Under the pieces are notes generated by a model. It was not told the origin of the DNA and searched no databases. It worked only from the letters and a program-made list of their open reading frames with translations. The position numbers and the translations under genes were made by a program. DNA of 64,000 nucleotides from Antedon mediterranea. Lineage: Eukaryota > Animalia > Echinodermata. This document shows positions 7,267 through 62,493 of this stretch, piece by piece (the stretch's first letter is position 1; every line of letters begins with the position of its first letter). Location of the stretch: contig NC_092672.1 of assembly GCF_964355755.1 (NCBI RefSeq), positions 20,039,237 through 20,103,236 on the forward strand, in the 5' to 3' direction.

Positions 7267-7365
7267 GGTGGAGAATCAGCTTTGCATTGGGCAGCTAAGG
7301 CAGGTCACTCAGCCTGCTGTAACCTGCTGGTTGATGCAGGGTCAGACATCAATATCCAAGACATA
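7267..7365 (+). CDS. Exon 1 in window: canonical ankyrin repeat
   Basis: ttttag|GGT...ATA|gtaagt; 99 nt, phase 0-0; GGESALHWAAKAGHSACCNLLVDAGSDINIQDI. Confidence 0.9.
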
Positions 7366-31300: not shown

Positions 31301-34300
31301 ACTTTCTTTCAATCCTTTGTATATCAATGGATTAAAACATAGAAAATGAGACTTCAATTGCAACTCTTGCATATAAGTTTAACTACGTCAACGTCGGTGA
31401 GGTTGAAATCTGTTTGTCAGTGGGTCTCACACCCAGCAAAGACGGGTACAGGTGCTAGTAATTTATATGATCAGATCATTTGATATCTGCTGCTTTAAAG
31501 TACAGTTTGATTTAATGTGATCACATCATTTCCCTATTATCATTTGATTTATAATTTTAGATGTAATTTTGTTGTTGTCGTCGTAAAGAATAAAACATCT
31601 TACAATGTTTCTATATTGTGTAGTGAAGATAAACTCCTTTCAGTTCAATATTATAGAAACTATTTTTATCAAGAAAGAGACCATGCCTCGCTCTAAATAG
31701 AGATGCGGTTATGTTGGGGAAAGAGAAAGAACTTTTCAAAATTTAAATAGATAGAGATAATAAATAGAGATAGAATATGAAGCTCATCTGAAAACACTGT
31801 TTTCATCAAGGTCAAATATGCATAAGTTAGAACTCAGATTTAGAATGCTCAGGATATTAATGAGTATCACTGAAATATTTATTAATAAATACAAATGTTG
31901 TTGAATTGTGTTATCCTAATGTCTACTACCAACCTTCATTTAAAATCAATTATTTTTTTAGGTAGATCAAGATCAAATATAGTTCTGACTTGTTAATGGT
32001 CACATGCCAGTATAGTTTATTGGTCTTGCCAGTGATAATGACAAAATATTTATTATTTTGGTCTACTATCACAGTAACACTTGTTATCAATTAATGATAC
32101 TGTATAACATATCAGTGCAATGTCCACTATTGTATTTTAAAAAATCAACAAAAATATATATATATTGTTTTTTTTTTTATTGGATCTGAGAAAGGCATAT
32201 ATTCCTGATCTAAAATTATTTTCACTTTGGGATATTTTTGTAAATTACAACTTTCATAAAAAAATATCATTAAAAAAAAAACAACATTGTATGTCCGAAC
32301 ATAGTGTAAATATGCACATGGTATAAATATATAGTTTGTAAAATGCATCAGAGGTCGTACATTTACAAAATAAAAAGAAAAAAAGGAATTTACATATTTA
32401 TTTATAAAGTGAGTGGCACTAGCCTTAGTCAGTGTAACTCTTTTTTTCTGCTATAAATGAGTTAGGAATAAAATTGTCATGTGACAGAATACCAATGTAA
32501 CATTTTTTTCTTTAAAATCAGTATTTTAACACCTGATGATTATGACCTCTTTCCAGAATGGAAACACTCCACTTCATATACATCTGGCTCGAAGGAATCC
32601 TACATTAGAAATGGTGACCTGTCTCATAAATAAGGGGGCATCAGTGACATCACAAAATAAGGTAATATAATATACACACAATTTTCAGAAATACTGTATG
32701 GCAACAATCTTTCACCTACTCTAGTAAATTATTCTATTCTTTTTTTTCTTTTTTTATATCTGGTTCATCATATAATTAATAATAATGACAATTATTATTA
32801 AATTGTGTGATTTTTGGTAGACCTATTTAAAAAACCATTCCTTCAAAGATGACAATATCTACAATATCTTTTAAACTTTTCGAAATTCCATTGAAATAGT
32901 TCCGGTAAACTTTTCGAAATTCCATTGCCATACTAGTGATCGGAATGTTGTTGTAAACACTTGGACTGTCTAAGAAGCATTTCTTCTTTACAAATTCAAT
33001 CCATTATTAAATTTTACAACAGACTAAGAATCTTTTATCCATTATTTTCCTTACATCTGCATACTTTGCTTAATTTGTATAAGCCTCTTGATTGATTTTA
33101 CATAATAATTTTACAATAGCGTTTTCAGGAGTCTGTTCTCACATAATTGCATTGTCATAAGATGTTTAAACCACTTAAAACCATTTATTCACCTTTGTTT
33201 TATTGTTACCCCCCAATTCTTAACTTGTTTCTTTATATTTACGTTCTTGTACTTTTCTGTTTTTACGTAACATTACCAGGCATCTTTTATTACATACAGT
33301 ACTATTGAATAAACTGATCACATTATGTATCGTTAGATATTCTCATGGACCCTTTTGACAATATAGATGCATTCCCATTTAATCACATTATTGATAATGA
33401 TGAATTCTTGCATGTCATTCACTATTACTTTTGTGACGATAGAATTGACTTTGATAGATTTAATTCTTTAATTTTTAACCTTTTTGATATTAATTTTAAA
33501 GATGTTATTAATGACAACGATGCCCAATTATTTTCCGAAAATATTGAATCTTGTGCCTATGAATATATCGATAGTCTTAACAACAAATATTCAACACAAG
33601 ATTATTCATTTAGTATCTTTCATTTAAACGCACGCAGTCTTGTTAAACATTTTAACGATATCAATGTATGCGTAGGTGCTATTAACCATGAATTCTCAGC
33701 ACTATGCTTCACCGAAACTTTTTTTAATCATAATACGCCTTTTTCCTTTTATAATATTCCCAATTATAACCTCTTGCATGTTTCACGAGCTGATAGACCA
33801 GGAGGAGGCGTTGCCATTTACCTACACCAGAGATTTAAATATATTCTTCGCCCTGATTTATCATTTATCATTACTAATGGTTCGGAATCTCTTTTCATTG
33901 AAATCGATGCACAACCCAAAAACATAATCCTTGGAGTAGTATATCGTTTGCCTGAATTATCCATTAACACATTTAATAAAGATATCTCTAATTTAATTGA
34001 CACCATTAATAATGAGAAAAAAACAGCATATATTTCAGGAGACTTTAATATTAACTTGTTAAATTCCAAAACACATAAAGGTACTTCTGATTTTGTTAAT
34101 ACTTTATTTCAATCAAATTATTATCCTCTTATTACTAGGCCAACTAGAATTACGCGTAATTCTGCAACTTTAATCGACAATATTTTTTGTAATAATCTAT
34201 ACGATAACATTTCTTCCGGAATTCTATATTCGGACATCTCGGATCACTTTCCTGTTTTCTTGTTAGTACATAAATCAGAACCTCTCCAACACCTGAAACC

Positions 34301-43300: not shown

Positions 43301-46300
43301 TAAATGTTGCCATTAGTGTATGAAAACATAGGGTTTGCCACAAAAATTGTAATGAATGGACTATTAGTTTAGGATATGTGAAAACATGGGTTTTATATTT
43401 TATTTGCATTCAAGTGATTGTGTTGGAAAGAGATTAACATCGTTACCATTTTAAGATAGTTAAAACAAATTATGTTATAACATGTGAATTATGGAATTAT
43501 TTTTAAGGATAAGATAAATACAGCGTCACACTTGACATCCTTCTTTCACAAAAAAAAATAATTTTTAACTTCATGATTGGTTTTTTTTCCACAGGATGGA
43601 AATCCTCCACTATATGAATACCTGATTCAAAGTCTCAACCCTGCTTCAGAAATTGTAAAATTTCTCATTAAAAAGGATAGTGCATTATTGACATTGCTAA
43701 ATAAGGTAATATGCAGAAAATTGAAGTTGCTTTTCATAAATAGATGTAAAATGCATAACAATAATCTCATGGGGACGGTCATTAACAGAGCTTGACTCTG
43801 TTTTGAGACGTACACAGACAAAAGTCGGCTTCTTTCGCAGATTAGTGGGCATGTTTGAGAAGTTTCTGCATTAGAAAGTCTAGGTCTTTAGGTAGCCAAT
43901 TAAAGAGGATGAACTAAAAACACCGAATCAAAACCTTAAAGGTGCTTACAAGAATGCTTGTTTATACTAATATAGCTAACAACTGTTAATGTAGTAAAAC
44001 CTCCAGCTAATGTAGAAACACTAACAGCTTATGTAGTAAATAAAAAGTCAACACCAGCTAATGTAGAACGGTCAACAACTAATGTAGTAACAAAAATTGC
44101 CTCACACTATCGCCAGCTAATATAGAAAATATATATTTTTACAAACCTGTTTAAATCTGTGCAAATGCATTTTTTTATTTAGCTATCAGTCTATCCACTT
44201 TTGTAAACGACCAATTTTCTAAAACGACCATACATTGTAAGCAAACATTTCTCTTAAGAGAGCGCTTTTCATAATTGACTACCTCTTGTAAGGGATCACC
44301 TCCTCTCATAAAGGACTACTTCTTATAATCGAACACCTCTTGTAAACGACCACCTCTCTTAAAGAACACACCTCTCTTAAGTGACCACCTCTTTCAAGGG
44401 ACCACAACCTCTCTCTTAAGGGACAACTTCAACCACCACAAAAGGTAGGTTCATGGTGATCCAAATATACAATTGTAGGGGTTTTCTGTCAAAACAATTG
44501 ATTAACAGTGCACTTTTATTTATTTATCAAATCCAAACATTTAAAAGCTCACTCATATTATGGGATAAAGAGGCCTACTTCCCATTATGGGGATAGTGTA
44601 GTATGTGGTGAAAATTAAACACAGGAAAGCTCACTCATATTATGGGATAAAGAGGCCTACTTCCCATTATGGGGATAGTGTAGTATGTGGTGAAAATTAA
44701 ACACAGGAGAGAATGCTATTCTTGCTTCTACATAATAAATAGATCAAAGTTGGTTTATCTGCCAGCAGTTTTTCTCATTGTTAGTATATTATTACTATTT
44801 ACGTTTGGATTTATAGATCTTGCCTACTACAGAACAGAGGTAGTGTTTTGGATCTGGGTGTCTATCAATTAATATGTCTTTGTAAATAGCTTGTTTAAGT
44901 AAATATTTTTGTTTTTAGGAAGGAAAGACGCCCGAATCTGTTGTAGAAACAAATGTGTACATAACGAAAAAAGAAAAAACTGTGATTTTAAACTATTTTG
45001 ACAGTAAGTAAAGTTTATAAATATAAATTATGCATTAATCTAAGATAGGTAAACACAGTGCAAAAGCTTTAGTGTGGTACAGGTGGTCATTTGAAATTAT
45101 CAATGCTACTACTATAAATTTTACAAAATTGTACTACAGAAACAAACTGTAAGGTGAATATTTTTATATAAGCTGGTAGACCTTATTTTTCTGGTTCATT
45201 ACAAATGAATGAAACTACATTCTCTGGATCAGCCCAATCAATAGCATAATTGATATTTATGTACATGGTTGCCACTATTTTATTATATTAATTGAGAGTT
45301 GGTTTAATATATTTGTATTAAAGATGTGTCCCCCTGAAAAAATAATTCTTAACAAAATGTTTGTTGAATATGCCATTTTAATGTAACATAATAGTTATCC
45401 ACTTTGACCAAAAATTGGATCGGAAAAAAAAACTTTAATTTAAAGCAAAAAATGTTCAAATTGGCTGCCAGCCAATGGGTTTTTGGTTGAATTTAACCAT
45501 TTATTTTGTCAATTTATAAGTGAAAACATTATTTTTTTTCATTTTTTTTTCTACGGAAGTGATTATCTTTATTAAAACTACAAAATAACATATTCAAAGT
45601 CTGATTTAATTAATCTTCATTTTTCATGTTTTTGGGGGACAATACATCTTTAATATTATTGTATTGCTGGTACTCGAACATAATTTAATATTCTTATTTC
45701 CCATGGTTCAAGTTTACCGGAGGTATTATTAAAGTTGATGAGAACTATTGTACTGTATATGGGATGACATTTATTTTACTGTTTAATAACAAAATACTGA
45801 TAATATCAAGCATTTTTAAGGCTTATAGAGGCAGAATGAGATAACAATTAATTTGTTGTCATAATAGAATTAGTTCCTGCAGAGATACGTGCCAGGGGTA
45901 AACAAGCTATTAAAATATATAAAGAAGAACTTAAAACTGGTAGCATGTCTGTTGTGAATTCAAGATGTATGTTTCTAGGAAAAGAAGGTGCTGGGAAGAC
46001 TAGCTGTGTAAAGGCTATGGTTGGAGAAAGGTAAAAAGTAAAATTGGTATAATGTTTATCGAGTATATATTACTGTACGGTATCTTAAGCTGTATTGACC
46101 ATCAATAGTTGTGTGCAAACATTATCTTGTGAACTGCTAAAGGAAAGGTTTTATTTAATTTGAATTATTATACACTAAGGGTGACATTGCAGTATGTTGA
46201 ATATTGTGATTCTTATAAAATATTAAAAACATTAATTTTATACACTTTAATTTACTTTTAAACTTACTAATGTTCTATTCATTAAAAATGTATCAGTTGT

Positions 46301-49300
46301 TTTATGATTGGAATATTTAAATGCAAACCCTTTCATGATTTAATCATTTTATACATACTATGTATGTTTCTAAAATGTACAATAAATTTTAACTTTACTA
46401 TACAATGTTATAATAGATTCAATTCTGCAGAACAATCCACAGATGGAATCGTTACAACCACAGTGTTTCAAGCAAAGAAGGATTGTAGTCAATGGAAAAA
46501 GATAAAAGATGTAAATGGTGAGAAAAGCAACTGAAAATGTTAAATTTTACATATTCATTATTTTGCTATAAATTTAACATTAATTTATTTTTGATAAAAT
46601 AATACTAATATTTAAATAAAAACATTCTTAAATGTATAATATAATGCCATTTACACATTGGTTATACAACAAATAACAATTCAAAATTCATTTGGCTATG
46701 CAACCATTACGTCTTGGTCTTACATTTTCAATGAGGTGATTGAAATCACCTCAGATACCAAGAATTGGAAAATTACTGTCAATGTTCAAAATATTGCTTA
46801 TCATTGTATTCCTCTCATCCCATACAACAGATTGGTTTCCTAATCTAATTGTCCATTTCTTGCTTTGTATAGATATTGAGCTATCAGAGCAAATTCGTTC
46901 ACATGCTTTAGGAGAAAAGGTTGATAAAAGGTTACAAGAAGGTAGGTACAGACTAATAAAGCTTTTATAACATTTAAATCTGCATAAAAGATGTATAATG
47001 ATATCGATCAGTAACACTGTTATATTGGTTTTGTTTCTGTAATTTTTTGTAGAAGGCAATGTTGGAACCTGGGCTAAATTTAAGAATGCTATGTATAAGA
47101 TGGTAAGAAGAAAAGAAAATGTGAGTGACATAACTAGTATATGGGACTATGCTGGTCAACTAGACTACTATATAACGCACAGGGTATGTTTTCATTATTC
47201 TATTATGAATATCACTTGTATTCTAAGAGTCATATTTAAAACAAATATTATTTTTATTGGGTTCAGAAATAAATCAATTAGAAGCTCTTAAATACTAATA
47301 GAGCTTTACTTTCTTTTTACATGATGTGTACTTACTATATTACTGACTGTATTTTGCCAAGAACATTTTTAACAGGGTTATTTATCAATGTGCAACATTT
47401 TTTTAGACTAGATGCTATGTTTTTGTTGGTTTTTCTAGTTTTCATATGAAACATCACCAGGGGCTGATCCAGGGGAGAGGACCACAGGGCATTTGTACCT
47501 GTCAATATTATCAACAGTAAAATGATAGGGTGGAGGGGCGGAGTGGAGTAGATGTGGGAATGAGAAGGTTTAATATATTATTTAAGCATCGTCAGTAAGC
47601 ATTAAACAACCTCAAAACCTCAGAAAACCATACCTCCACCAATTATACCAGGCCTTTCTTTCTTTCTCTTTTGTTCTTTATATTTCATGCAATAATGCGA
47701 TGTTGAATAAAGATCAATAGGTGATCTACAATAAACAATGCTAAAATAAATACTTTACACATACTATTCACAATCTAATTACAACAAATACTATTCCTGA
47801 TCTAAAAAGAAAGAAGGTCATATTAAGACTCATAATAAAAGCAAATCACTATCCAAATGGAAAAGTAAACAGAGAGGTACCACTTTTGAAATAATATCAA
47901 CAATTGTATGACTTTGATGGTAAGAAATTACCACGTGTATCAAGGCGAGCTAAACAATGGTTGTGGAAATGCCATTTGACGTAGTACACGCACCTCTCTT
48001 GTAAGAAATTACCACGTGTATCAATGCGAGCTGAACGATGGTGGAAAAACAATTTAATTTGACATACATACATCCCTCTTACAAGAAACCATGTGTTCCT
48101 GCCTGCATTGATGGTATCTGTTCCAATTTATTGTTATGTATCACTCTGGCCTAGACAATGACGACAATACAACAGACTCATGTATATACCAACAATGAAA
48201 TTGCGCTATATTTAGACATTGACAGGATTTGCTCACTGTCTGGGTGACAGCATGTAGCTTGTTTTTAAACGTCTAAACAAGTAGGTTAGACCTAGCCAAT
48301 GGTTTTGAAATGATCATGACAACATAACAAAACATACATAGTAATACACATTATGTCAAGTTAGTTCCCACAACATAGGAACCACAGTCCTGGTAAGGGT
48401 CTGGTATCACAGTGTAAAAATGGTGAAAGTTGATTTTACAGTCTGCATTAATCTGCATGTTTGACTTGATGAGGCATGAACAAAGTGCTCGTAACAAAAG
48501 CAGAGCAAAATAGATAAATAAATGACTATTTATTTGCGCACTAGATTGTTTCATAAAAGTGATAAAAAGAAGAGCTATTTTATCACCTTGATGAAACAGT
48601 ACAGTATGTAGTGTGCAAATAGAATGTTGAAGTTTAAACTTGAGTCATTAAACTTTATCTATATAAAATATTGTAATATTATATTATAATTAACCATGAA
48701 AACATAATCCTTGTTAATTTCCAGTTTTTCCTGACAAATACAGTATCATACTGTGTTGCTTTCAATGTCATGGACAACTTGGATGAGCCAGCTAAACCAC
48801 GGGATTCAAAAATAGTAAGTTAAACTTTAGTACTTTAGACAATCTTGTGAACTACAAATGCTATAATGTAATTTAATTTCAATATTAGTTTAAAAATATA
48901 TTGTCATTGTCATTTTAGGGTCAGCTAGGAATGACTAATTTGGACATGAATTTCTTCTGGATAAGGTCCATTTATGAACATACTGTACAACATGGTTCAG
49001 GAAACACTATTTCAATTGATGGCAAGAACATAGAGTCACCTCCCATCTGTTTGGTTGCAACTCATGTGGACAAATTGTCAGGGACAGCATCAGAAAAAGA
49101 GGAGGAGGTAAATAGTATATAAATATTAGATATTTATATCTTGTCTTTTTCTTAACTATGTCAACATAAGTGCTCCTAGCAACTGAACACAACTGAATGT
49201 AACTATAAACCTCAACTGACTGCAACTGACAGGTGCACAACAATGTAGACATAAGCTTAGTTTCATGTATAGTTGCCCATGTTCTATTTTTACTGTAACT

Positions 49301-52300
49301 GAGTGAAACTGAAAAGTTTTAAACGTGTCACACGGGTGATATGGGTAACGGCGACCAGTCGCGATTGGTTTGTATATACTGGTTCCTATACAACTATTAA
49401 TTGCGTTGTGCGTGTAGTAAGGTAAATTAATAGGCTCTTTAGAATTAATATTTTGCCTACAAAAAGGTTGACTGTATTTAACAACCCATCAGTACAATTA
49501 GAACAAAAAAGCAGTTTGAGGTCTAATGTACATGTTTATACAATCAAATAATATAACATGAAAATGGAACATTTAAGCTATACACATTACATGCATTACA
49601 AAAGAATTCATTAAAGAAAGCACATTAAAGTAGAAACATTGTTTGAGATTTTGTCATTTTGAATTACAGTATGAATCAAATAAAACAGCCTGTAACAGTT
49701 ATGGAAGATTGTGTACATTAGGTTGTGACATATTGTCTTGTAAACCACTGATCATGATGATCACTGAGATCACGCAGATTGATCTCGCTGATCATGTGAG
49801 TATTCTCAGTGGATATATCATTGTCTACACTTAGCTTGAAAATATGCCTGGAGGCGCAAACAAAATCCAAGATGGCGACAAAAATCCAAAATGACTGCCC
49901 GTTTGATCTAAATTGTATTTATAATGCCTATTAAATGTCCTTTTTAAACATGTTTGTTTTTTTTAATTTACCACACACATTGAATACAAAGTAAAAATAT
50001 TAAATGAAATATACTATACAGTATATCAGCGTGATCAGTAATTATTGTGATAAGTTATCAGCGATAGTAGCAATATGAATGTATTTATTAATTGAAGGTT
50101 ATGAAGATGTACAAGAAAATGTTCGATAAAATGGAAGGAATGCCATATGCTCACCATGTAGATCGTGAAATGTACATGGTTGATAACACCATGAAATCAC
50201 CTGAAGGTATTACAAAACTTAAGCGAAACGTTGGTAGATACATGATGGAAATGGTGAGAGAAGTTCCAGTAAAGTGGGTTAATTTACAGGAAAGTTTGCA
50301 AAGAATTGGTGAAACAAAATTGTGTATTACGTTTGAGGAGGTAAAGTTTTGATTGTGGATTCCAATGTAATTATATAATATGATTATTTATTGTTACTTT
50401 GTTTTTATTCCTATAGAGACTACTAATATTTATAGTCCTGGCCTATCATTGCATTTTCCATTAGCTTTTCTCCAGGCTCTACAAGTAATGTACTAAGTTA
50501 AGTTATTTGTTTGAATTAAATTCTGTATTAGGTTTTCAGGATTGGCACTGAATGTGAAATTTCCGAAGAGAGGCTCGACACTGCCATAAAGTATATGAAT
50601 GACATTGGGATCATTTTACATTCAAGTTCTAACAAAAAACTGAAAAACACTGTGATAACAGATCTTCAAATGATGATTCAAATGGTTACAAAAGTGATCA
50701 CAGTAGTTAAACCGTCTATTAAAGTGGTAGGTAGATAATGTATTTTATTATGATATTAGATTGTCAAAAATGTGGATGTATAGGCGATGTTAATAATCTG
50801 TTCTTAGTAACTTGATGTGAAACAGTATAATTGTATTGATCATGTGACTGTACTGTATAAAGTAAGAATAAACTGTTTTTTTTTTAATATAAAAGCAAAT
50901 GAGGGTGTTGTGGAAAAGCCTTGATGAGGAAGGAATACTGGAGGAAAGACTGCTACGGTATTTATGGGAACAGGAATTAGAGGAAGATCCACATCGCTTT
51001 GAAATCTTTACTGAAGTGATGAAGACATTTGGTTTGCTCTTTGAGAAATTGAAGGTAAGTTATTTCAATTCAATTTCCTTATTGCTGCAAATGCCATCAA
51101 GGGCTAATATCCACTTAAACATACTACATCATACAAACATATACATATTTACATTTAAAATTGTTTTAAACATCTTATTTTAGATTGGCTGTCACTTAAA
51201 TTAGCTTAAATGTTATACTTGTAATATTTTAATTTACAACACTTTGCTTACATCTGCAGGTAACTGAAGGTAACCGGGTATTCTTTGTTCCATCTCGAAT
51301 GAAAACCGAGAAAGAGAGTCTTGAAGTTGAAACGGACAAAAAAAATATGGTTTCAATCTATCTTACACCTGTAGACTTTCTTCCTAATGCTGTCTACAAT
51401 ACATTGATTGTTGCATTTCTGGACTTGATGGAGGAAAAAAATAAAGATGGCGACCAACGTGTGTCTCAAAACCGCAGTGAATTTGACTTTAAGGATCATG
51501 GGGTCAATCTAGGCACAGTGAAAATTGAAAACAAGCATGCATTAAAGGTTTGGAAATTATTCATTTTATTTATTTAATGTTTCAATTAAATATATTTAAA
51601 GACAAAATTGTAGATATCAAACAATGTTTTAAATGATTTCAATCAATCTTACTACTATTACACTATTACATTTTCAATTTTATAAATAAATTGAAGGCTA
51701 CATATTATGATGAATACAATGGTAATGTTTTGCATTTATTATTTAGCTCATTTTAAATTAACAAAGACAATTTCCTCATCAGCTTGAAATAACTCATCTG
51801 ACTGAAGTTGATGGTAATGCTAGAGGCCAAATGAAAGAACCGCAGCCAAGTTTCTGCATAGAGGTAAAGATTAGCATGATATGCCTATGTGTTATTAATA
51901 ACATATTCAACACCAGCACTTGAATGTAATGATTGCCAATAAACAATGGAAATGATCATATAAACGTTTAAGTCGCCATGTACGAAACTCAAATTGCTGA
52001 CTCTAATAAAAATTACAAAAGACATACTTATAATATTTTATTCTACGATATGTATATAATGTCTTGTTTATTCACCCAAAAACTATGTAAATTCATGGCA
52101 CGCTGGACCACCTAGTCCTAGGCGTATGTATCCCAGGAAAACTTGATGCCCCAAATTGGAATTTGGCAAACTGGCTAAATACTATATATAAACAGCTTGC
52201 ACCTTCTATGTAATCTTTGTTATCATGTAACACTCAGAGTCATTGAGTCACTTTGCATAATCTATTCTGCTCTGCTTAATTGCGTCAAGCACTTTTGCCT

Positions 52301-55300
52301 ATATGGGTTGGTTCAAACTTTCAACCTATTATATTTAAAACTTATGTTCTACATTTTACTTGGTTTGTAGGTGTTAAGTTATCTAATGCATCAACTAGAA
52401 ACTGTACTTGTCACTAGAGAAGGAGTTGGCTACAATCTATGTGTGTTGTGTACTGCTTGTAATCCAGCAGAGAAGCCTCATTTACATGATTTCAAAAAGT
52501 GCTTGAAACTAGATACTAATAGTGTTAAATGTGGCAATGAACGCATGATGACCAATCATTTAAAGTGGCTATTTTTGGAAGGTTAGTTGAAATTTTTGAT
52601 TATAATCACAATTTTCTTCAATTGCAGTATTTTTTATTTGATACAACATTTAACAATACAATGTACAAAGATATATGTCCTTTAGTCCAGAGACATCTAC
52701 GAAGGCCGTTTTAATTATAGATTGGTTTTATTGTTAAAGTAATACATGGTTAAATACTTTTTTTTACAATATAATGAAAATCAGTTGACTAATTGATTGG
52801 TATTCTATGAGTTTCCTCTGCAGAAAAAAGGGAAACAAGCTCATCAGTCACAGGTTTGTTGATGATAATACCAGATAATAAAAATGTCTTTTATGTAATT
52901 ACTAGTCCTTGCTAATGGTAGAAAAATGATAACATGACACTATCAGTATACACATAAGATTAAAAAAAATGATAACATGAAACTATCAGTATCCACATAA
53001 GATAAAACAAATGATAACATGAAACTATCAGTATCCACCTAAGATGAAATAAAATGATAACATGAAACTATCAGTATCCACCTAAGATGAAATAAAATGA
53101 TAACATGAAACTATCAGTATCCACCTAAGATGAAATAAAATGATAACATGAAACTATCAGTATCCACCTAAGATGAAATAAAATGATAACATGAAACTAT
53201 CAGTATCCACATAAGATAAAAAAAATGATAACATGAAACTATCAGTATCCACATAAGATAAAACAAATGATAACATGAAACTATCAGTATCCACCTAAGA
53301 TGAAATAAAATGATAACATGAAACTATCAGTATCCACCTAAGATGAAATAAAATGATAACATGAAACTATCAGTATCCACATAAGATAAAACAAATGATA
53401 ACATGAAACTATCAGTATCCACATAAGATAAAAAAAATGATAACATGAAACTATCAGTATCCACATAAGATAAAAAAAAATGATAACATGAAACTATCAG
53501 TATCCACCTAAGATTTAAAAAAATGATAACATGAAACTATCAGTATCCACATAAGATAAAAAAAAATGATAACATGAAACTATCAGTATCCACATAAGAT
53601 AAAAAAAATGATAACATGAAACTATCAGTATCCACATAAGATGAAATAAAATGATAACATGAAACTATCAGTATCCACATAAGATAAAACAAATCATCAA
53701 GGAAAGAATATAATATTTTGTTGTTTTGTTATACAATACATTTTCATTGTAGATTTTGTCAGATTGTTTTTTGTATTAATATAAGGATGAGATATAACAC
53801 AGGATGACAGTTTTAACACTTACCCCAAATTAAACGAGCATTATAAATAATGTATTTCTAAAAATCATCATGTCTCAAGTTCAACAAATTCTAAATGGAA
53901 TTTAAACAAAAATCATGAAAGATGTGTTGGCTAGGTGTGGTAGTTCGAGATCAGTCGGACACAATCATATGAAGGCAGCATTGATTTCCATCAGTATTTC
54001 ATTTATTCATATTCACATTCATATTCACTGGCATTTATCACATAAACTACAATCAGATTCATATTCACTGGCATTTATCACATAAACTACAATCAGCCAT
54101 CTCTTGAAAAAAAAACCCTATAAATACAACAGACAAACATACATAATAATAATCCACATATGAACAATTGATAACCATTGTTATACTCATTACGTTATCT
54201 TTAGTACAATACATACACATCACATCAGTATTACATTATTATCTATTATATATAACAAGTGATAACCACATCTATACCTGGATTAAACGATGTTAATTTT
54301 TACAACGTACCTGGAAACGAATAACTGATAATTTAATTAGAATAGCAACTGCCTCTACTCAGCCACAATGGATATGCCCAATCTGTACTCATGTGCGGGG
54401 AAATGGAAATATCTGTTTTTAAACAAAACTGTGTGAGCTATTATTTTAGGGCTAAATTTTTATGTTATCTGAGATTAACAAAAACATACAAGTATTAACT
54501 AACACTGACACACAAGCTAATTTTCCCACAAAAAATATAAACGTCGTAGTGGTGTATCGTTACATGTACTTTACTATTTCAGTCGACTATGACAGTGACA
54601 GTTTTAACAAAGTATTAAATCACAAATGTTCTACTCTATTTAATGAGACAAATCTCATGACACAAAATACATGAATAAGGTCCAATGTGAATGGCATAAT
54701 AAAACAGTGTATCCTAGTGTTAAAAGAATGGTTTATTTAATAAAAACTAACTTTAAAATCTGTATTGCATAAATTGTACGTGATACTGTTTTTGTTATTA
54801 TAACTAATATGTTTATTTTGCATAGATACACAGACTGCTACTCCTCTGTCTACAAGCTCATTAGAGACAGGTTAGTGGTTATCATTAGATCATTATGTAT
54901 CATATGGACAGTTTGTCTGAAAATACATGAATATAATAGCATAACATCTATGAGCAGAATAGTTGATTTAATACTGGTATTCTTGATTATGACTAATGTA
55001 TATGTTTATTTTGCATAGATGCACCTATTGCTGCTCCTTTGGCTACAAGCTCATTAGGGACAGGTATAGGTGAGTAACATTAGATCATTAGGGACATGTA
55101 TAGGTGAGTAACATTAGATCATTAGGGACAGGTATAGGTGAGTAACATTATATCATTAGGGACAGGTATAGGTGAGTAACATTAGATCATTATGGACAGG
55201 TATAGGTGAGTAACATTAGATCATTAGGGACAGGTATAGGTGAGTAACATTAGATCATTAGGGACAGGTATAGGTGAGTAACATTAGATCATTAGGGACA

Positions 55301-58300
55301 GGTATAGGTGAGTAACATTAGATAATTAGGGACAGGTATAGGTGAGTAACAGTAGATCATTAGGGACAGGTATAGGTGAGTAACATTAGATCATTAAGGA
55401 CAGGTATAGGTGAGTAACATTAGATCATTATGGACAGGTATAGGTGAGTAACATTAGATCATTAGGGACAGGTATAGGTGAGTAACATTAGATCATTAGG
55501 GACAGGTATAGGTGAGTAACAATAGATCATTAGGGACAGGTATAGGTGAGTAACATTAGATCATTAAGGACAGGTATAGGTGAGTAACAGTAGATCATTA
55601 GGGACAGGTATAGGTGAGTAACATTAGATCATTAAGGACAGGTATAGGTGAGTAACATTAGATCATTAAGGACAGGTATAGGTGAGTAACATTAGATCAT
55701 TAGGGACAGGTATAGGTGAGTAACATTAGATCATTAGGGACAGGTATAGGTGAGTAACATTAGATCATTAGGGACAGGTATAGGTGAGTAACATTAGATC
55801 ATTAGGGACAGGTATAGGTGAGTAACATTAGATCATTAGCGACAGGTATAGGTGAGTAACATTAGATCATTAGGGACAGGTATAGGTGAGTAACATTAGA
55901 TCATTAGGGACAAGTATAGGTGAGTAACATTAGATAATTAGGGACAGGTATAGGTGAGTAACATTAGATCATTAGGGACAAGTATAGGTGAGTAACATTA
56001 GATCATTAGGGACAGGTATAGGTGAGTAACATTAGATCATTAGGGACAAGTATAGGTGAGTAACATTAGATCATTAGGGACAAGTATAGGTGAGTAACAT
56101 TAGATCATTAAGGACAGGTATAGGTGAGTAACATTAGATCATTAGCGACAGGTATAGGTGAGTAACATTAGATCATTAGGGCATTGTTACAACCACTTAT
56201 GTAGTACCAGCTATAATAAAAACTACTGCTAAGATAGAAACAATAAAGATATCATATCATTTATTTTATTTGAACAAACATGTAAACATAACAAATGTAA
56301 ATCAATGTTTGATGACAGAGGAACATGAGTTTGTTTATTATTTTGTACCACATGTTAGAAATGTCCAGAAATATCTGCGATAATCCTTTAAATTTGATAA
56401 ACAGTTGCTGGTGTGATGTTTTAACAGCCTTCACACGTACGGCTTAAGAATGGCGTGGCTTACGCAAGCGGTAAGGTAATCCACGGATTAAAATGCTCAG
56501 GTGTTCACACGTACGGCGTTCGGTATATTAATGAATGGAATTAAACAAAGAAGTCCAACTATCATTACGTTTTAAAGGTTAAACCCTTGTTTCCTTTTTA
56601 GATTTTACACTGTCTTGATGGTAATCTTTTAATTTTTTTTTTCTTAACCAGCTTGAAATATAGTCAGCACTTGATTGCTAAATCAATTCATTCCCGACAA
56701 AAAACACTCTGCTTTTGGCCATAATTTACTTTTATTTCACCCTAAACCATTCATGCGCGGTTAATCGAAGAGCAGATAGTAGCTAAATAGGTGGTTTTTA
56801 TATCCGCAATAACATTTACAGTAAAAAACAAGAATTAATTGGTAAATATCATGAAATAAGGTTAAAATCATTCAAGCGTCGCTGGAGTTTGCTCCGTGGC
56901 GTTAGTTAATTTGGGGTGTGTAGCTGTCGTTAATAACGCCACGGACGTGGCTTAGTGAGTTGCGTTAATAACGCCACTGCCTAGTTCACACGCAAGGCGT
57001 AGGCTACGCAAGGCGTACGCCACTGCTTACGCCATACGTGTGAACAGGCTTTTAGTTCAGTAATTGATGTTGTCAACAATTACCACAAAAATGATATCAA
57101 TAAACTAAGTCAAGAAAACCTCCTATATTATTTACTCAACAGTCATGAACTTTGTACATATTTAAGTACTTTTTTTACAACCTAATGAGAATCACTTAAC
57201 TAAGTAATTGGCATTTGGTAATTTGCTATTGACAATCAAAACAAATTTATGCTAAACCATTTGCCTCAAACAGAGGTGTTTTAGAATCTGCCATATACAT
57301 CTATGTAAAAAACCTTTGTAAAAACGTATTAAGGATTGCTATCTGTTTATTCTGATTTTTGTGAGACCTGAATAACCCTAAAATATATATTGAATAAATG
57401 TGTGCTATTCTTGATAATGACTATTAATGAAAATCAGTTGACCATTTAGTCAAATTGTTAATTATTACTTGATACAAATTTAGGCTGAACCATTCCCAGA
57501 ATAGAGGCGTTCTAAAATCAGATTTTTTGGTTTTCTGTGAAAGCATGCATTTGTGATATTTATGACTAATACATGTATGATATATATCTTTCAAGTCAGT
57601 TGATTGCTAATTATAAATTACATTATACATTACATACAATTTAGAAATGGCAATAGCTAATTCAGAAAACACCAGCTAATGTAGAAACATTAACAGTAAA
57701 AAATATGTTATATGGTACTTGATATGTAAAGTTTGGAAAATGTTAGTATTTTAAAACAATTTTTGATAAGGAACATGTCAAAGATGGTGGTTTCTGACAA
57801 ATCTCATGATTTCAAAATACATGAATAAGGTCTAATTTGAATTGCATGAAACAGTGTATCCTAGTGTTGTTAACAGAATAGTTTATTTAATAAAAACTAA
57901 CTTTTAAATGTGTATTGAATAAATTGTGATACTGTTTTTGTTATTATGACTAATGAATATGTTTATTTTGTATAGATACACTAACTACTACTCCTCTGGC
58001 TACAAGCTCATTACGGACAGGTAAGTTGATTATCATTAGATCATTAGAGATCCTAATATGTTTATTTTGTATAGATACACTAACTACTACTCCTCTGGCT
58101 ACAAGCTCATTACGGACAGGTAAGTTGATTATCATTAGATCATTAGAGATCCTTAGATAGGGTAGTGTTACAACCACTAATGTAGAAATAGCAATAGCTA
58201 AATTTAGAAATAACAAATTGCTCATATGTAATTGTACCAGCTAAGGTGAGAAAATGCTTCACAACTATGCTGAAACTACTGTTTGGAACTACATCAAGAA

Positions 58301-60917
58301 ACGTGAAGGATAGATACATTATGTGAAGTTAAATGTAATATAAAGTTGGTAATACATAAGGATAACAACTAAGGAGATTCTGTATTAATCACTTTCAACT
58401 ACCATGTCTGTGTTTTGGGGATATTAATTATTCCCTATGCAGCAATATATATTGTGACCTGATTTATGGAAAGTTATGGTGTTTTAGGAATTTATATTCA
58501 TACATACAGACATATTCAAACAATGATTTTCAACAACTATGATAATTATGATAATTATTCTCAATTTATATCATAATTTTGGAAACTTGTCTTCAACTAT
58601 TTAGAGTTGTCAGAGGATAATTTTAAACAGTTGATTGCAGACTTTGCAAAATGGTTTGATGATCGTGGTCTCCTTAAAAGGCTACAAGTTCTATGCATAG
58701 AAATAGTAGATGACATCAAAGAGTTGAAAATGACATAGACCATTTTAAATATCTATGTTTTTGTAGCCTCTTTATCTACCCACTAGAATAGACTCATTAA
58801 TGTACAATATATAACATGTGATGGATCATGTAGATATGGAAGGCAACAAACAACTGACATAGACCATTTTAAATCTCTATGTTTTTGTAGCCTCTTTATC
58901 TACCCACTAGACTAGACTCATTAATGTACAATAGATAGCATCTGATACATCATATAGATATGAAAGGCAACAAACAACTGACATACACCATTTTAAATCT
59001 CTATGTTTTTGTAACCTCTTTATCTACCCACTAGACTAGACTCATTAATGTACAATAGATAGCATCTGATACATCATATAGATATGGAAGGCAACAAACA
59101 ACTGACATACACCATTTTAAATCTCTATGTTTTTGTAACCTCTTTATCTACCCACTAGACTAGACTCATTAATGTACAATATATAGCATCTGATGAATCA
59201 TGTAGATATGGAAGGCAACAAACAACTGACATACACCATTTTAGATCTCTATGTTTTTGTAACCTCTTTATCTCCCCACTACACTAGACTCATTAATGTA
59301 CAATAGATAGAATCAGATGAATTAATTGTGTGTTGCTTGTATAATAGGTCAGAGTATAGCATCAAATTAAACTCTGGGCAAACAAACAAAAGCCAGCCAG
59401 GTACAGGCATGAATTTTAAACATAATATCTGGTTAATTGTACATAAATCAAATATTTGTAGCAGAAATCAAGACGAAAAAACATTAATTTTCCCTTAATA
59501 TGGTCTAATACAAAATTTGGCAAAATTCTGCCATCAAAACCAGGAAGACTTTTTTTCAGTAGTTTGGTAGTTTAACCTAATGTAATAACATGTCTGGTGA
59601 CTCCCTAGAAGGTGAAAAAAAGATGGTGGATATACCGTGGATAATTTTTGCTATAGCATGAAAATAAGAAAATCTAAAGTTGAATAAAAATACCAGAAAT
59701 GTAAAATTCAACTTACATTACCTATATTTAGTGATCTGATAACATTTTTTACTACACCGTTTATTTTTCATAGCTTTTTAAAATGCCTCTCTATTTACAA
59801 AATTTGAATTTAGAGATTTTACTGTGTAATTTGAACTATGATCCCACTGATAAGAAAGTGCTTATTTTCAACAAACTTGTGTAACACAAATAAAATCCCA
59901 AAAATTATGAAACAAAGGGGAAACTATAGATCGATAATTATTGGAGTGTATGATCAATAGAAATTGTTTGCCCGCACCTGGCCTTAAAGATAATAACGTG
60001 AGAATGTAATTATCCACATTGATAGTTTTTTTAATGGTTATCTAGTTAGTAAATCACTGATTTATTAGTAAAGTGTTGTCTATGGTGTGATGATTGTCTA
60101 CCATGTGTCTTCTATGCATCATTTATGATGTGGATTTTAAACCTTAATTTCTTTTGGCAAATTACAATAGTATGGTCACAAAGAATATAAGTTGAATGGA
60201 AAGAATGTTTTAATGATTTAAAAGATTTCCTGTTTTGTTGACCTTCAAACTTTTTATTTTTTTAAAATATATTCATTATTCAAAATGTTGGTACTGAAAT
60301 TTTTTCAAATCAGCTATCTCGGCCTTTTATTGTGTCTACAAAAAAAACGACCCAGTGACATATATTACACTGTTGGTTTTTTAGGTGAACTATCTGACGA
60401 TAACTATCGGGAACTGCTCAGCAAAGTGTCATCGTGGTTCAAGGAATCAGAGAAAGTCAACCTATTGAAAGTTATACTTTGCAAGTGTGAACAATTTTCT
60501 GTTGTCGAAATAGAAAGAAGCAATGATCCATTTGAGCTGTTTAAGTTACTTGAAGGTCCTGGAATCATTAGCCAATCAAATATCGATGTTCTCATTGAAA
60601 TCATTGCAATAGGAGGAATAGAGGGTGTGTATGAAAGCATCAAGCACTTGATACCAACCTTTGCTGGATTTGAGAAATTAATCATCTCTGAACGCTGGAA
60701 TGATGTACGAAAGGTGATCAGATTTGGTCTTAAGATAAGTAACGCAGATAAAGTAAAAATTGGACAGTTGCGTGGCCTGAAGGTTAAGGAATGGGATGAT
60801 GTTTGGATTTTAATATTTAAGTTAGTAATGAAAGATACATTCACTAAAAAGAGCACAGAATTCGTTCGACTACTTAAGGACAATGACATGGATAGCCTTG
60901 CTACATTATTGGAATAG
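7267..60917 (+). CDS. Spliced gene, 5'-partial: ankyrin-Roc-COR-linker-DED Roco-family protein, 23 exons, ~1057 aa in window
   Basis: All exons listed below have AG/GT borders and compatible phases. They sum to 3174 nt with no internal stop, ending at TAG 60915-60917. Roc G1-G5 motifs and COR motifs are recognisable. Confidence 0.88.
10311..11968. mobile_element. Non-autonomous hAT element with internal ~200-bp tandem repeats
   Basis: TIR catagttgcca/tggcaacgctg; 8-bp TSD ccttcatc (10303-10310, 11969-11976); empty site in the paralog near 20417-20424. Confidence 0.88.
12290..12915. mobile_element. TTAA-targeting MITE, Kolobok-like
   Basis: TTAA TSD (12286-12289, 12916-12919); imperfect TIR agaccccttccctgc/gtagggaatggggct with RR..YY termini; empty site near 29667. 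Confidence 0.8.
13318..14240. mobile_element. Non-autonomous element with long terminal palindrome (Crypton-like architecture)
   Basis: ~160-nt hairpin 13321-13481 centred on gaggcaaagccgag; inverted repeat ttatataacatcta (~13484)/taggtgttatataa (~14224); absent from the paralogous copy. Confidence 0.55.
16618..16912. repeat. ~73-bp minisatellite, ~4 copies
   Basis: ttttaaatgcattatggctactcatacatgctgatt...; only one unit in the paralog at ~30609-30680. Confidence 0.85.
18777..18887 (+). CDS. Exon 2: ankyrin repeat (duplicate A)
   Basis: ttccag|AAT...AAG|gtaata; 111 nt, phase 0-0; NGNTPLHTHLANMFKDPTLEMVTCLINKGASVTSQNK. Confidence 0.88.
20441..21926 (+). mobile_element. Non-autonomous Helitron, copy 1
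   Basis: 5' TC after A; 3' hairpin ctagatggtacgc...gcgtaccatctag ending in CTAG; no TSD. Confidence 0.85.
21927..23015 (+). mobile_element. Non-autonomous Helitron, copy 2 (head-to-tail, internally deleted)
   Basis: Same 5' ~470 bp as copy 1; ends catCTAG before T; empty site gta|ttgttataatg at ~11992. Confidence 0.82.
23100..24750 (-). mobile_element. Decayed LINE (CR1/L2 group) RT remnant
   Basis: Minus-strand fragment FLDLSKTFDVVNHDI...KLFRYGI (24118..24348); flanks full of stops; limits approximate. Confidence 0.65.
24958..25222. repeat. Direct repeat of ~75 bp, ~190 bp apart
   Basis: tttttgaaatagtaaatgatcagagatgtctgaattgtaa...gataaaatatcaaaat occurs twice. Confidence 0.7.
27866..28160. 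repeat. Dispersed repeat; inverted copy at ~45324-45647
   Basis: aaaaacccattggctggaagccaatttgaacatt versus aatgttcaaattggctgccagccaatgggttttt, with matching flanks. Confidence 0.7.
28878..28992 (+). mobile_element. Second HINE-like element
   Basis: Homologous to 3712-3815. Confidence 0.6.
32557..32661 (+). CDS. Exon 3: ankyrin repeat (duplicate B)
   Basis: ttccag|AAT...AAG|gtaata; 105 nt, phase 0-0; NGNTPLHIHLARRNPTLEMVTCLINKGASVTSQNK. Confidence 0.88.
32877..36919 (+). mobile_element. Near full-length L2-group (Crack/Daphne-like) LINE, APE plus RT
   Basis: ORF 33345..35867 (HLNARS, TET, GGGV, GDFNI, SDHFP, PQGS, FADD) continued by 35902..36462 after a frameshifting deletion near 35810; (AAACG)n tail; empty site at ~19105. 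Confidence 0.92.
33345..36462 (+). pseudogene. LINE ORF2 endonuclease-RT with one frameshift
   Basis: FLGVTIDASLTWKLHI appears in a different frame at ~35816, contiguous with the 35902 ORF. Confidence 0.88.
38092..38257 (+). mobile_element. 5'-truncated SINE with MetaSINE-like core
   Basis: tgtactttaaagaacctagtacatctttcgagacgagtgggggt core; (TTCAA)n tail; 9-bp direct repeat aatagaata at 38083-38091 and 38258-38266. Confidence 0.6.
38260..41560. repeat. Compound satellite of 21-bp units tgtgctatccatttgaaa(t/ga)a in higher-order repeats, split by a MITE
   Basis: Arrays at 38260-39653 and 41292-41560. Confidence 0.9.
39654..41291. mobile_element. Non-autonomous TIR element with 5-bp TSD (hAT5-like)
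   Basis: TIR ctggggcggatccaga/tctggatccgccccag; TSD gtact (39649-39653, 41292-41296) reconstitutes the satellite unit. Confidence 0.8.
43595..43705 (+). CDS. Exon 4: divergent ankyrin repeat
   Basis: ccacag|GAT...AAG|gtaata; 111 nt, phase 0-0; DGNPPLYEYLIQSLNPASEIVKFLIKKDSALLTLLNK. Confidence 0.85.
44545..44707. repeat. ~81-bp tandem duplication
   Basis: aaagctcactcatattatgggataaagaggcc...aaacacagga x2. Confidence 0.85.
44919..45003 (+). CDS. Exon 5: ankyrin C-cap/linker
   Basis: ttttag|GAA...A|gtaagt; EGKTPESVVETNVYITKKEKTVILNYFD; phase 0-1 joins exon 6 in frame. Confidence 0.8.
45868..46030 (+). CDS. Exon 6: pre-Roc motif and P-loop
   Basis: LVPAEIRARGKQAIKIYKEELKTGSMSVVNSRCMFLGKEGAGKTSCVKAMVGE; GxxxxGKT/S Walker A; phase 1-2. 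Confidence 0.92.
46417..46517 (+). CDS. Exon 7: Roc switch I
   Basis: FNSAEQSTDGIVTTTVFQAKKDCSQWKKIKDVN; STxGI motif; donor G|gtgaga; phase 2-1. Confidence 0.88.
46873..46941 (+). CDS. Exon 8: Roc insert
   Basis: gtatag|AT...G|gtaggt; DIELSEQIRSHALGEKVDKRLQE; 69 nt, phase 1-1. Confidence 0.8.
47053..47183 (+). CDS. Exon 9: Roc switch II
   Basis: EGNVGTWAKFKNAMYKMVRRKENVSDITSIWDYAGQLDYYITHR; WD(F/Y)AGQxxYYxTH Roc signature; phase 1-0. Confidence 0.93.
48725..48814 (+). CDS. Exon 10: Roc
   Basis: ttccag|TTT...ATA|gtaagt; FFLTNTVSYCVAFNVMDNLDEPAKPRDSKI continues the THRFFL motif. Confidence 0.9.
48919..49107 (+). CDS. Exon 11: Roc G4
   Basis: GQLGMTNLDMNFFWIRSIYEH...SPPICLVATHVDKL...; WxxSI and PPxxLVxTHxD motifs; phase 0-0. 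Confidence 0.92.
50098..50340 (+). CDS. Exon 12: Roc G5 and start of COR
   Basis: ...MYMVDNT...EVPVKWVNLQESL...CITFEE; 243 nt, phase 0-0. Confidence 0.9.
50532..50726 (+). CDS. Exon 13: COR
   Basis: VFRIGTECEISEERLDTAIKYMNDIGIILH...LKNTVITDLQMMIQMVTKVIT; matches the COR pattern L.fLhdlG.ilh...L...V..dPqwl; phase 0-0. Confidence 0.88.
50896..51054 (+). CDS. Exon 14: COR
   Basis: QMRVLWKSLDEEGILEERLLRYLW...VMKTFGLLFEKLK; donor gtaagt. Confidence 0.88.
51260..51547 (+). CDS. Exon 15: COR
   Basis: VTEGNRVFFVPSRM...FLPNAVYNTLIV...; resembles the y.vP..L and flP.g.f..L COR motifs; 288 nt. Confidence 0.88.
51783..51863 (+). CDS. Exon 16: COR C-terminal part
   Basis: catcag|CTT...GAG|gtaaag; LEITHLTEVDGNARGQMKEPQPSFCIE; 81 nt. 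Confidence 0.82.
52371..52581 (+). CDS. Exon 17: end of COR plus Cys/His cluster
   Basis: ttgtag|GTG...G|gttagt; VLSYLMHQLETV...CVLCTACNPAEKPHLHDFKKCLKLDTNSVKC...WLFLE; phase 0-1. Confidence 0.86.
52824..52853 (+). CDS. Exon 18: 30-nt linker micro-exon
   Basis: ctgcag|AA...ACAG|gtttgt; EKRETSSSVT; phase 1-1; shares ACAAGCTCA...ACAG with the 45-nt exons. Confidence 0.7.
52922..53694. repeat. 43-bp minisatellite, ~18 copies
   Basis: tgataacatgaaactatcagtatccac(a/c)taagat(g/a)aaa.aaaa. Confidence 0.95.
54826..54870 (+). CDS. Exon 19: 45-nt linker micro-exon
   Basis: gcatag|AT...CAG|gttagt; DTQTATPLSTSSLET; phase 1-1. Confidence 0.75.
55019..55063 (+). CDS. Exon 20: 45-nt linker micro-exon (alternative in-frame donor after 55069)
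   Basis: gcatag|AT...CAG|gtatag; DAPIAAPLATSSLGT; a second donor AG|gtgagt lies 6 nt downstream. Confidence 0.72.
55051..56181. repeat. 34-bp minisatellite, ~33 copies, containing the exon 20 3' end and splice donors
   Basis: tcattagggacag|gtatag|gtgagtaacattaga. Confidence 0.95.
56426..57050. mobile_element. MITE, PIF/Harbinger-like
   Basis: Imperfect TIR agccttcacacgtacggcttaag/cttacgccatacgtgtgaacaggct; internal ttcacacg repeats; TSD unclear. Confidence 0.55.
57976..58020 (+). CDS. Exon 21: 45-nt linker micro-exon
   Basis: gtatag|AT...CAG|gtaagt; DTLTTTPLATSSLRT. Confidence 0.75.
58075..58119 (+). CDS. Exon 22: identical copy of exon 21 (99-bp tandem duplication)
   Basis: Same 45 nt and splice sites as exon 21; separated from it by a 54-nt intron. 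Confidence 0.6.
58605..58738 (+). pseudogene. Truncated alternative terminal exon: N-terminal part of a DED-like domain
   Basis: atttag|AG, phase 1; ELSEDNFKQLIADFAKWFDDRGLLKRLQVLCIEIVDDIKELKMT* aligns with ELSDDNYRELLSKVSSWFKESEKVNLLKVIL of the last exon; the stop codon lies inside the 124-bp repeat. Confidence 0.72.
58731..59320. repeat. 124-bp minisatellite, ~4.7 copies
   Basis: Unit starts at 58731, 58855, 58979, 59103, 59227. Confidence 0.92.
60385..60917 (+). CDS. Exon 23 (terminal): DED-like domain followed by a probable second death-fold
   Basis: ttttag|GT, phase 1; YRELLSKVS...LLKVIL...DPFELFKLLEGPGIISQSNIDVLIEII fits the DED pattern (LF..Le..g.is..N...L.ell); a second helical unit follows to the stop. 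Confidence 0.8.
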
Positions 60918-62365: not shown

Positions 62366-62493
62366 TAGGAATAATTATTTCAATGTTGTTTATTTCAGGT
62401 GCTTTTTTTTTTTTCCAATTTATATTTGTGTATGTTTTTTTTACAATCAATCATTGTGAGTTTATTTTAAATACTTAAATATTATTGTAAGTG

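Follow-up and report, generated by a model that had tools for sequence, protein, structure and literature searches.

A ROCO gene of the crinoid Antedon mediterranea with a predicted tandem death effector domain tail and a core of different history

Core and tail of a predicted ROCO gene of the crinoid Antedon mediterranea have different histories. The gene lies in a window of 64,000 nucleotides, i.e., the whole stretch of DNA that was analysed, and its reading frame encodes ankyrin repeats (ANK), a Roc-COR unit, a Thr/Pro linker and a terminal module, in this order. We consider it fairly probable that the product is a cytoplasmic, NLR-like sensor-switch-effector of innate immunity or cell death, the last exon of which was likely exchanged recently with a distant paralogue. 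The new element is the discordance between core and tail, which is a predicted tandem death effector domain (DED); the overall design has precedent.

The exon chain was rebuilt from splice signals and reading frames. It comprises 23 exons (7267..60917, plus strand) with compatible phases and GT-AG ends at all introns, and its translation of 1057 amino acids is free of internal stops and ends at TAG 60915-60917. The open frame with ANK, Roc-COR, linker and DED-like end that an earlier note on this DNA had described was thus recovered. The exons are spread over 53.6 kb of AT-rich animal DNA and have a GC content of 0.38, compared to 0.31 for the whole span. A chance estimate of approximately 1e-26 for such an open chain, calculated as a product, overstates the case because exons had been chosen for openness; the real support for the chain is homology. 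The splice path is mirrored by the RefSeq paralogues P0088 through Roc-COR (92% over amino acids 155-866) and P0094 through ANK-Roc-COR (69% over amino acids 2-885), and P0063 and P0099, encoded on another contig of the same species, are complete ANK-Roc-COR-tandem-DED models. Architecture and open frame constitute a model derived from DNA, with predicted splicing, which is backed by these paralogue models. As neither a start codon nor a 5' exon was found for the gene model within the window, the gene begins elsewhere than at exon 1. Two candidates were rejected during reconstruction: acceptor 51747 for exon 16, which introduced a stop (51783 was taken instead), and an exon at 59353-59400, which has a weak acceptor and lies inside a very high-depth repeat. 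The features of the locus are as follows.

7267..7365, plus strand: exon 1, canonical ankyrin repeat, phase 0-0; Pfam Ank E 1.6e-9; 48% to the first repeats of P0094
18777..18887, plus strand: exon 2, long-loop ankyrin repeat, phase 0-0; Pfam Ank E 5.5e-6; inside the segment duplicated at 29.6-37.2 kb
32557..32661, plus strand: exon 3, duplicate of exon 2; Pfam Ank E 1.3e-6
43595..43705, plus strand: exon 4, long-loop ankyrin repeat, phase 0-0; no Pfam match; 59% to a repeat of P0094, E 1.7e-8
44919..45003, plus strand: exon 5, ankyrin cap, phase 0-1, bridge to Roc; no Pfam match
45868-46030, 46417-46517, 46873-46941, 47053-47183, 48725-48814 and 48919-49107, plus strand: exons 6-11, Roc with G1-G4; 97% to the Roc region of P0088
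50098-50340, 50532-50726, 50896-51054, 51260-51547, 51783-51863 and 52371-52581, plus strand: exons 12-17, end of Roc, COR-A, COR-B region and Cys/His-rich end
52824..52853, plus strand: exon 18, optional 30-nt linker exon, phase 1-1; skipped in RefSeq P0001
54826-54870, 55019-55063 or -55069, 57976-58020 and 58075-58119, plus strand: exons 19-22, four related 45-nt Thr/Pro/Ser linker exons, phase 1-1
58605..58738, plus strand: alternative terminal exon, phase 1, cut short after the opening ~43 codons of a tandem DED that belongs to another subtype; the frame then enters a 124-bp array and meets a stop
58731..59322, no strand: 124-bp tandem array, 4.8 copies; the same unit recurs at 61921-62366 after the full terminal exon
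60385..60917, plus strand: exon 23, terminal, predicted tandem DED of 176 amino acids, and stop

In the gene model Roc is directly followed by COR, and the gene is a member of the ROCO family. When exons were scanned one by one, Pfam recognized COR-A on exons 13 and 14 (E 1.5e-7, at 50532-50726, and 0.0096), Roc weakly at 47055-47183 (E 0.053) and Ank on three of the five N-terminal exons. The region of exons 12-17 is 91-97% to P0087-P0091. P0088, a relative with 91-97% identity, matched Pfam Roc (E 1.2e-9) and COR-A (E 9.9e-16), and its best PDB matches were 4wnr, 3dpu and 6hlu, followed by LRRK2; the ESM Atlas returned Roc/COR clusters at 0.97-0.98. The nucleotide-binding motifs G1-G4 are present and common to the paralogues: GKEGAGKTS (amino acid 208), STDG, WDYAGQ (312) and ATHVD. 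The claim that G1-G5 are intact held for these four; at the G5 position only the family-conserved MVDN was found. According to passages in PMC6337361, G4-G5 vary among Roc domains. Exon 14 starts at an AAG acceptor and is devoid of one Lys that is present in five paralogue models, a comparison by which an ancestral acceptor may have been lost. No further copy of any of the 12 Roc-COR exons occurs in the window; they are single-copy there, as the earlier note had stated.

At the N-terminal end, four phase 0-0 exons of 99-111 nt each encode one ankyrin repeat, in line with the one-repeat-per-exon layout of brown-algal genes to which the earlier note had pointed. Exon 5 was the best of seven phase 0-to-1 candidates and is 94% over 16 amino acids to the start of P0088 and 54-55% to P0099 and P0094. 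Exons 2 and 3 derive from a segmental duplication (12.2-19.4 kb versus 29.6-37.2 kb, 87-98% in pieces) and are distinguished by one replacement, two silent changes and a loop after helix 1 that has been rewritten without loss of frame. This difference is close to the rate in the flanking introns (4.8% versus 3.1-3.9%); the ANK duplication within the gene shows no excess of amino-acid change, and one pair cannot show selection. Across 29 long-loop repeats of eight proteins, variability peaked at column 8 and loop columns 11-16 (2.7-3.1 bits, gappy column 14 excepted), with 0-0.6 bits at G, T, P, L and H in the same alignment. In ankyrin proteins, as known from designed ones, the positions of column 8 and the loop face the ligand. 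The variability among paralogues sits on the predicted binding face.

Several repetitive elements were observed in and near the gene. Long-ORF blocks at 1424-3460 (minus strand), 4330-6729 (plus) and 33318-36459 (plus) resemble LINE endonuclease/reverse transcriptase by eye, and the last of them interrupts the second copy of the duplicated ankyrin segment. Intronic tandem arrays with 21-bp and 43-bp units are located at 38340-39652, 41320-41566 and 52922-53694. In DNA runs, 45013-45766 behaved as a very high-depth repeat (hundreds to thousands times the local depth).

The tail was modelled with AlphaFold2. Based on a 13-row alignment, an all-helical structure was obtained with a pLDDT of 90.9 and a pTM of 0.86, which superseded a single-sequence fold with a pLDDT of 59. 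Structure comparison against 48,161 chains placed tandem DEDs of caspase-8, cFLIP and vFLIP at ranks 1-9, with caspase-8 4zbw as best match (Z 14.7, rmsd 3.2, 164 residues aligned), followed by the single DEDs of FADD and PEA-15. Helical bundles can reach a Z value of 13 by chance; here, the entire match list consists of death folds and the whole tail model is covered. Foldseek ranked the same structures at the top, with E values of 0.076 or weaker. Pfam detected DED on the last exon with an E value of 6.5e-4, below the curated cut-off, and a profile of the tail alignment had no matches among PDB sequences. The terminal exon is predicted with high confidence to encode a tandem DED, i.e., two packed six-helix DEDs with 12 helices. 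Of the DED-like end reported previously, the death fold, of caspase-8 type, was borne out by the prediction; its extent was revised from one DED to a tandem DED of 176 amino acids. The mammalian DED motifs FL and RxDL are presumably not kept in the tail, judging by eye.

Between core and tail, RefSeq P0001 contains all four exons 19-22. Exon 20 has two in-frame donors, 55063 and 55069, the second of which fits P0001. Upstream of the full terminal exon, the truncated exon at 58605 matched the tail profile with E 1.8e-8 and is 88% to P0069 over 41 amino acids; splicing into it would give a product of 926 amino acids. As it is only 29% identical to the full terminal exon, it represents a different subtype and not a duplicate. 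The previous claim that all outer modules are duplicated thus applies to ANK exons 2 and 3 and the four 45-nt linker exons, and fails for the terminal exons. Exon 23 is 100% identical to XP_071944709.1 and 95% identical to XP_071944702.1 (A. mediterranea RefSeq). The linker and terminal exons in the window all start in phase 1, so that any tail can be joined in frame. With respect to P0092, its core is 78-95% like that of the window's gene and its linker ends like that of P0002, suggesting that linker exons were exchanged too. Further repeats were seen in this region: (i) 33 copies of a 34-bp unit at 55051-56181, which corresponds to the end of exon 20 with its two splice donors and could supply many cryptic donors; (ii) a very high-depth repeat between the two terminal exons (59320-60099; hundreds to thousands times the local depth in DNA runs); (iii) 5.5 copies of a 107-bp unit at 60865-61453, in which the final 17 codons of exon 23 recur together with its stop.

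Core and tail were compared in a set of 28 rows with a COR region and a following tail; 14 of 42 core rows were left out of the trees, as they have no full tail after the core. The window's core is 93-97% identical to those of P0087-P0091 whereas the tails of the same pairs are only 14-16% identical (alignment-based values; global pairwise identities of unrelated tails are higher, 22-25%). Conversely, its tail is 95% identical to that of P0002, the core of which is only 25% identical. Placing the window's model with its core sisters was rejected in the tail tree (p-AU 2e-80), and placing it with P0002 was rejected in the core tree (p-AU 1.5e-66); the core tree is based on only approximately 210 amino acids of COR, BLAST results were already at hand when the test groups were selected, and long branches meet in both trees. 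Of the 14 core splits that were starred, eleven are incompatible with a starred split of the tail tree (28 rows). Core and tail trees of the predicted proteins conflict, in a comparison that uses automatic models in a cluster with possible exon mis-joins.

Since several pairs are discordant, the tail swap was not a single event. Tails are less than 50% identical in 10 of the 18 pairs with cores of at least 85% identity, among them P0088 and P0091 (cores 99%, tails 49%) and, on another contig, P0026 and P0110 (core 87%, tail 22%). The tails of P0058 and P0101 are 84-90% to those of P0064 and P0100, with cores at 54-57%. Tail types B and C occur in two and four independent RefSeq models, respectively. 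In the window, the order core-linker-tail was read straight off the DNA, and no COR exon of P0002 type was found between core and tail. The core of P0002 groups with that of P0004, whose tail is the next relative of the window's tail (51%). This tail type is probably native to the distant P0002/P0004 branch and would have been captured by the window's gene, a direction that we infer from unrooted trees. Diversification by exon duplication, as proposed earlier, is evident in the ANK and linker duplicates; the stronger signal is the exchange of effector exons between distant paralogues.

A HMMER search of 1.84 billion representatives retrieved 84 tail homologues, and all representatives checked for organism were crinoid; among the 152 proteins of the whole analysis, the organism was assigned by cluster look-up for 30. 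Pfam domains were assigned in 83 of them (P0081, a repetitive protein with a 40-amino-acid match, was omitted). The tail module is combined with Roc and/or COR in 15 proteins, with NACHT in 10, with TIR in 4, and in one protein each with NB-ARC-TPR, a RIG-I-type helicase, Rel homology, a caspase and a kinase. This domain company is the main ground for proposing a role in immunity or cell death, which it suggests by association. One homologue, P0039/P0097 (XP_071955940.1, Antedon, another contig), is a Rel/NF-kB-type protein with RHD DNA-binding and dimer domains and an N-terminal tandem DED, possibly a direct link from DED receptors to transcription. In the Anneissia protein P0080 (XP_033103796.1), a RIG-I-type helicase, a tandem DED occupies the N-terminal slot in place of CARDs; brachiopod RIG-I-like receptors (RLRs) with DED are described in passages of PMC8998645.

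A profile of nine Roc-COR proteins yielded 59 matches when proteins of 418-1936 amino acids and the 7994 best candidates were scored: 23 from Antedon, 25 from Anneissia japonica and 11 distant ones, including scallop and bacterial-type proteins. With 48 of 59 matches from crinoids, the family is lineage-expanded, as had been supposed. At least 16 related models are present on the window's contig, some of which may be pieces of one gene. The C-terminal domains vary within the family: besides DED, there are Death (P0105, P0132, P0137, P0138), HEPN_DZIP3 (P0103, P0106, P0109) and ZU5 between two tails (P0026). In the three HEPN proteins, which are from Anneissia, Roc-COR is followed by one or two HEPN_DZIP3 domains, possibly a nuclease effector. 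Two further arrangements were also seen, two Roc-COR units in tandem in P0098 (Antedon, 1681 amino acids) and a tandem DED on both sides of Roc-COR in P0036 (1130 amino acids). Among similar Roc-COR clusters of the ESM Atlas, those from molluscs and sponges carry Death, CARD or HEPN, whereas bacterial ones carry TIR or CHAT; the general repeat/Roc-COR/effector design is widespread.

The gene was compared with known systems. Passages of Kaur et al. 2021 (PMC8195603) propose a role in conflict for bacterial LRR-AP-GTPase(Roc)-COR proteins, for which no fewer than 24 effector types are given; as described there they share with the crinoid gene a repeat sensor, a Roc-COR switch and a variable C-terminal effector slot. 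In contrast to them, the crinoid gene is an intron-split animal gene with ankyrin instead of LRR and a tandem DED adaptor as effector, and the exchange takes place between exons of clustered paralogues. Brown-algal LRR-ROCO genes, as presented in parts of Zambounis et al. 2012 (PMC3341825) and Teng et al. 2024 (PMC11378527), likewise form an expanded, clustered ROCO family of proposed immune receptors with one repeat per exon; they are further characterized by positive selection and alternative splicing of the repeat exons, and in Ectocarpus the C-terminal region was replaced twice. Here, the crinoid gene differs by ankyrin in place of LRR, the death-fold effector and the presence of only four repeats. 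Kinase-less animal Roc-COR proteins are likewise described, in excerpts of Civiero et al. 2014 (PMC4104024), PMC5094078 and PMC9334734, for Trichoplax (at least 17 ROCO genes; PMC4104024), cnidarians (anemones) and molluscs (Aplysia); the domains that accompany Roc-COR there are CARD, Death or TIR. A tandem DED tail, ankyrin cassette exons and a recent effector exchange do not appear in these excerpts. Lophotrochozoan RLRs resemble the crinoid family in that sibling immune-sensor paralogues differ by a DED or Death exon (passages of PMC8998645); there, the domain was gained on a helicase, whereas in the crinoid family one tandem-DED subtype replaces another on a GTPase.

The tail shares with caspase-8, cFLIP and vFLIP (4zbw, 8ybx, 2f1s) the predicted two-DED fold (156-167 residues, Z 12.8-14.7), but it has only 11-14% identity to them and is C-terminal, without a caspase domain. 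As in DAPK1, Roc-COR is combined with a C-terminal death fold (PMC6337361, in part), whereas no kinase was found in the window, the tail is a tandem DED instead of a single death domain, and the gene is multi-copy. DAPK1 also has ankyrin repeats. Like in an NLR, a repeat sensor and a death-fold effector flank an NTPase, in reverse order (ANK N-terminal, tandem DED C-terminal); unlike in an NLR, the switch is Roc-COR, and neither NACHT nor NB-ARC is present in the gene. The gene product, which as far as tested is neither an NLR nor DAPK1, likely works like an NLR. The earlier proposal of an NLR-analogous Roc-COR receptor from a variable family agrees with architecture, expansion, death fold and immune-type tail homologues, with the restriction that the protein is not an NLR proper, as it has no STAND ATPase. 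The literature search listed no paper on crinoid Roco genes, on Roco combined with tandem DED in invertebrates or on an animal Roco family with recently exchanged effectors; the architecture may be included in the source data of PMC8195603 or in Figure 2 of PMC11378527, which covers approximately forty domain combinations of animals.

In the mechanism that we propose, the ankyrin repeats would bind a ligand, the Roc-COR GTPase would act as switch and the predicted tandem DED would recruit partners. A ligand on the variable ankyrin loop may shift the nucleotide and dimer state of Roc-COR, by inference from known Roco proteins (passages of PMC6337361). Once clustered, the tandem DEDs could seed a complex that includes tandem-DED adaptors, a caspase-8-like protease, kinases or a Rel protein, partners suggested by domain sharing; the assembly step is drawn from caspase-8 and FLIP structures (PMC11874512, in part). 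The outcome of such an assembly would be cell death or the induction of genes, and the partner would be determined by the tail subtype, again to judge from domain sharing. Tails may be exchanged by unequal crossover or conversion among clustered copies, eased by the phase-1 linker and terminal exons. A wider hypothesis is put forward only tentatively: crinoids might have a parallel NLR-like system that is built on Roc-COR GTPases. In it, ankyrin cassette exons would alter detection independently of the phase-1 terminal exons (tandem-DED subtypes, Death, HEPN), which would be exchanged between clustered genes within a few percent divergence and also serve as alternative last exons in series. 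One sensor would thereby be wired to different branches of a network in which a single tandem-DED module has come to serve as adaptor on NLRs and TIR proteins, on a RIG-I helicase, on kinases, and on caspase-8 and a Rel factor.

Other explanations of the locus were weighed. The family may be functional and tail-swapping while this copy is a young, decaying chimera, a by-product of birth-and-death turnover without a full-length protein, whose sole product, if any, would be the 3' linker-tandem-DED piece. This is rather unlikely in our estimation: the frame stays open and the phases fit through all 23 exons (53.6 kb), with GT-AG introns throughout, G1-G4 are intact, and the change in the loop of exons 2 and 3 preserves the frame. 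On the other hand, RefSeq has only the last 268 amino acids of the locus, the upstream terminal exon is truncated, the acceptor at exon 14 is possibly lost, and the introns contain three reverse-transcriptase ORF blocks and many arrays; with 91-97% identity to its sister cores, the copy may also be too young for stops. A functional death-fold scaffold outside immunity, similar to a kinase-less DAPK1 and serving, e.g., in programmed cell removal in the course of arm loss, regeneration or development, appears improbable. The order ANK-Roc-COR-death fold is also that of DAPK1, which regulates cell death and autophagy (PMC6337361, in part), but the large recent expansion, the variable repeat loops and the effector exchange fit conflict-driven families, whose pattern of expansion and variability is described in passages of PMC3341825, better than housekeeping regulators.

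We give very little credence to the tail exchange being an assembly or annotation artefact of a repetitive cluster. While the stretch from 58731 to 60100, with its arrays and high-copy repeat, is not spanned by any contig, and many paralogue models are partial, each core-tail junction is common to several independent models, discordance was found on another contig as well (P0110 versus P0026), a difference of 5% from the P0002 tail argues against a collapsed copy, and in run X4 one contig extends from the intron at 60265 into exon 23. Least credible is that the gene is the 3' part of a DAPK1 orthologue whose kinase exons would precede the window, as might be imagined from a 5' end outside the model and from exon 1 being a canonical ankyrin repeat. 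Kinase similarity was absent from the window (best E 0.21, inside a tandem array), no kinase family was assigned in any of the 48 crinoid Roc-COR matches, and in P0063, P0099 and P0144 a short cap precedes the ankyrin repeats, which agrees with an ANK-Roc-COR-death-fold architecture devoid of a kinase. Moreover, the tail is a tandem DED and not one death domain, DAPK1 was absent from the matches of the searches with exon 15 and with the Roc-COR family, and the many close paralogues, among them the related models on the window's contig, speak against one-to-one orthology, as far as sequence comparison goes. Three of the four points on which the earlier note had staked its reading did not refute it: the tail is a predicted death fold, the gene is multi-copy, and no kinase was found in the window or its relatives. 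The reading as an NLR-like receptor with a recently exchanged last exon is the one that we favour.

Most Roco proteins are, to our knowledge, without known function, and the idea of Roco immune receptors rests mainly on algae and bacteria. The crinoid family represents a deuterostome case of Roco proteins as candidate immune receptors. It also offers natural controls, i.e., cores that are 97-99% identical and differ only in the effector exon; P0088, P0091 and the window's gene have three different tails. Such controls permit a direct test of Roc-COR as coupling of sensor to output and of death-fold subtypes as an address code. The findings further bear on the question how immunity and cell death became connected with LRRK2, MFHAS1 and DAPK1, and on the immune system of crinoids, which has received little study.

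With respect to annotation, the RefSeq protein of the locus is P0001 (XP_071944709.1) of only 268 amino acids, which comprises the COR end, linker exons and tail. A search with exon 15 yielded eight proteins, all from Antedon and encoded on the window's contig, with 78-98% identity and none identical or above 98%; the core of this locus seems to be missing from the RefSeq annotation. Sequencing runs X1-X5 were inspected over 41620-52915 and 56200-60860, where introns are covered like in DNA and none of the joints listed connects one exon to another, so that the runs have no bearing on expression. Over exon 23, their main contig carries the P0002 residue at four of ten listed differences (three are silent, three are other replacements), hinting at several near-identical copies of the exon 23 tail. 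Depth was raised on the Roc-COR exons and exon 23 (X4, 179.5 versus ~76; X2, 413 versus 128; X5, 105.8 versus 35; X1, 74.6 versus ~10-16), values that are not a measure of copy number. In X1, depth was near zero at 57136-57603.
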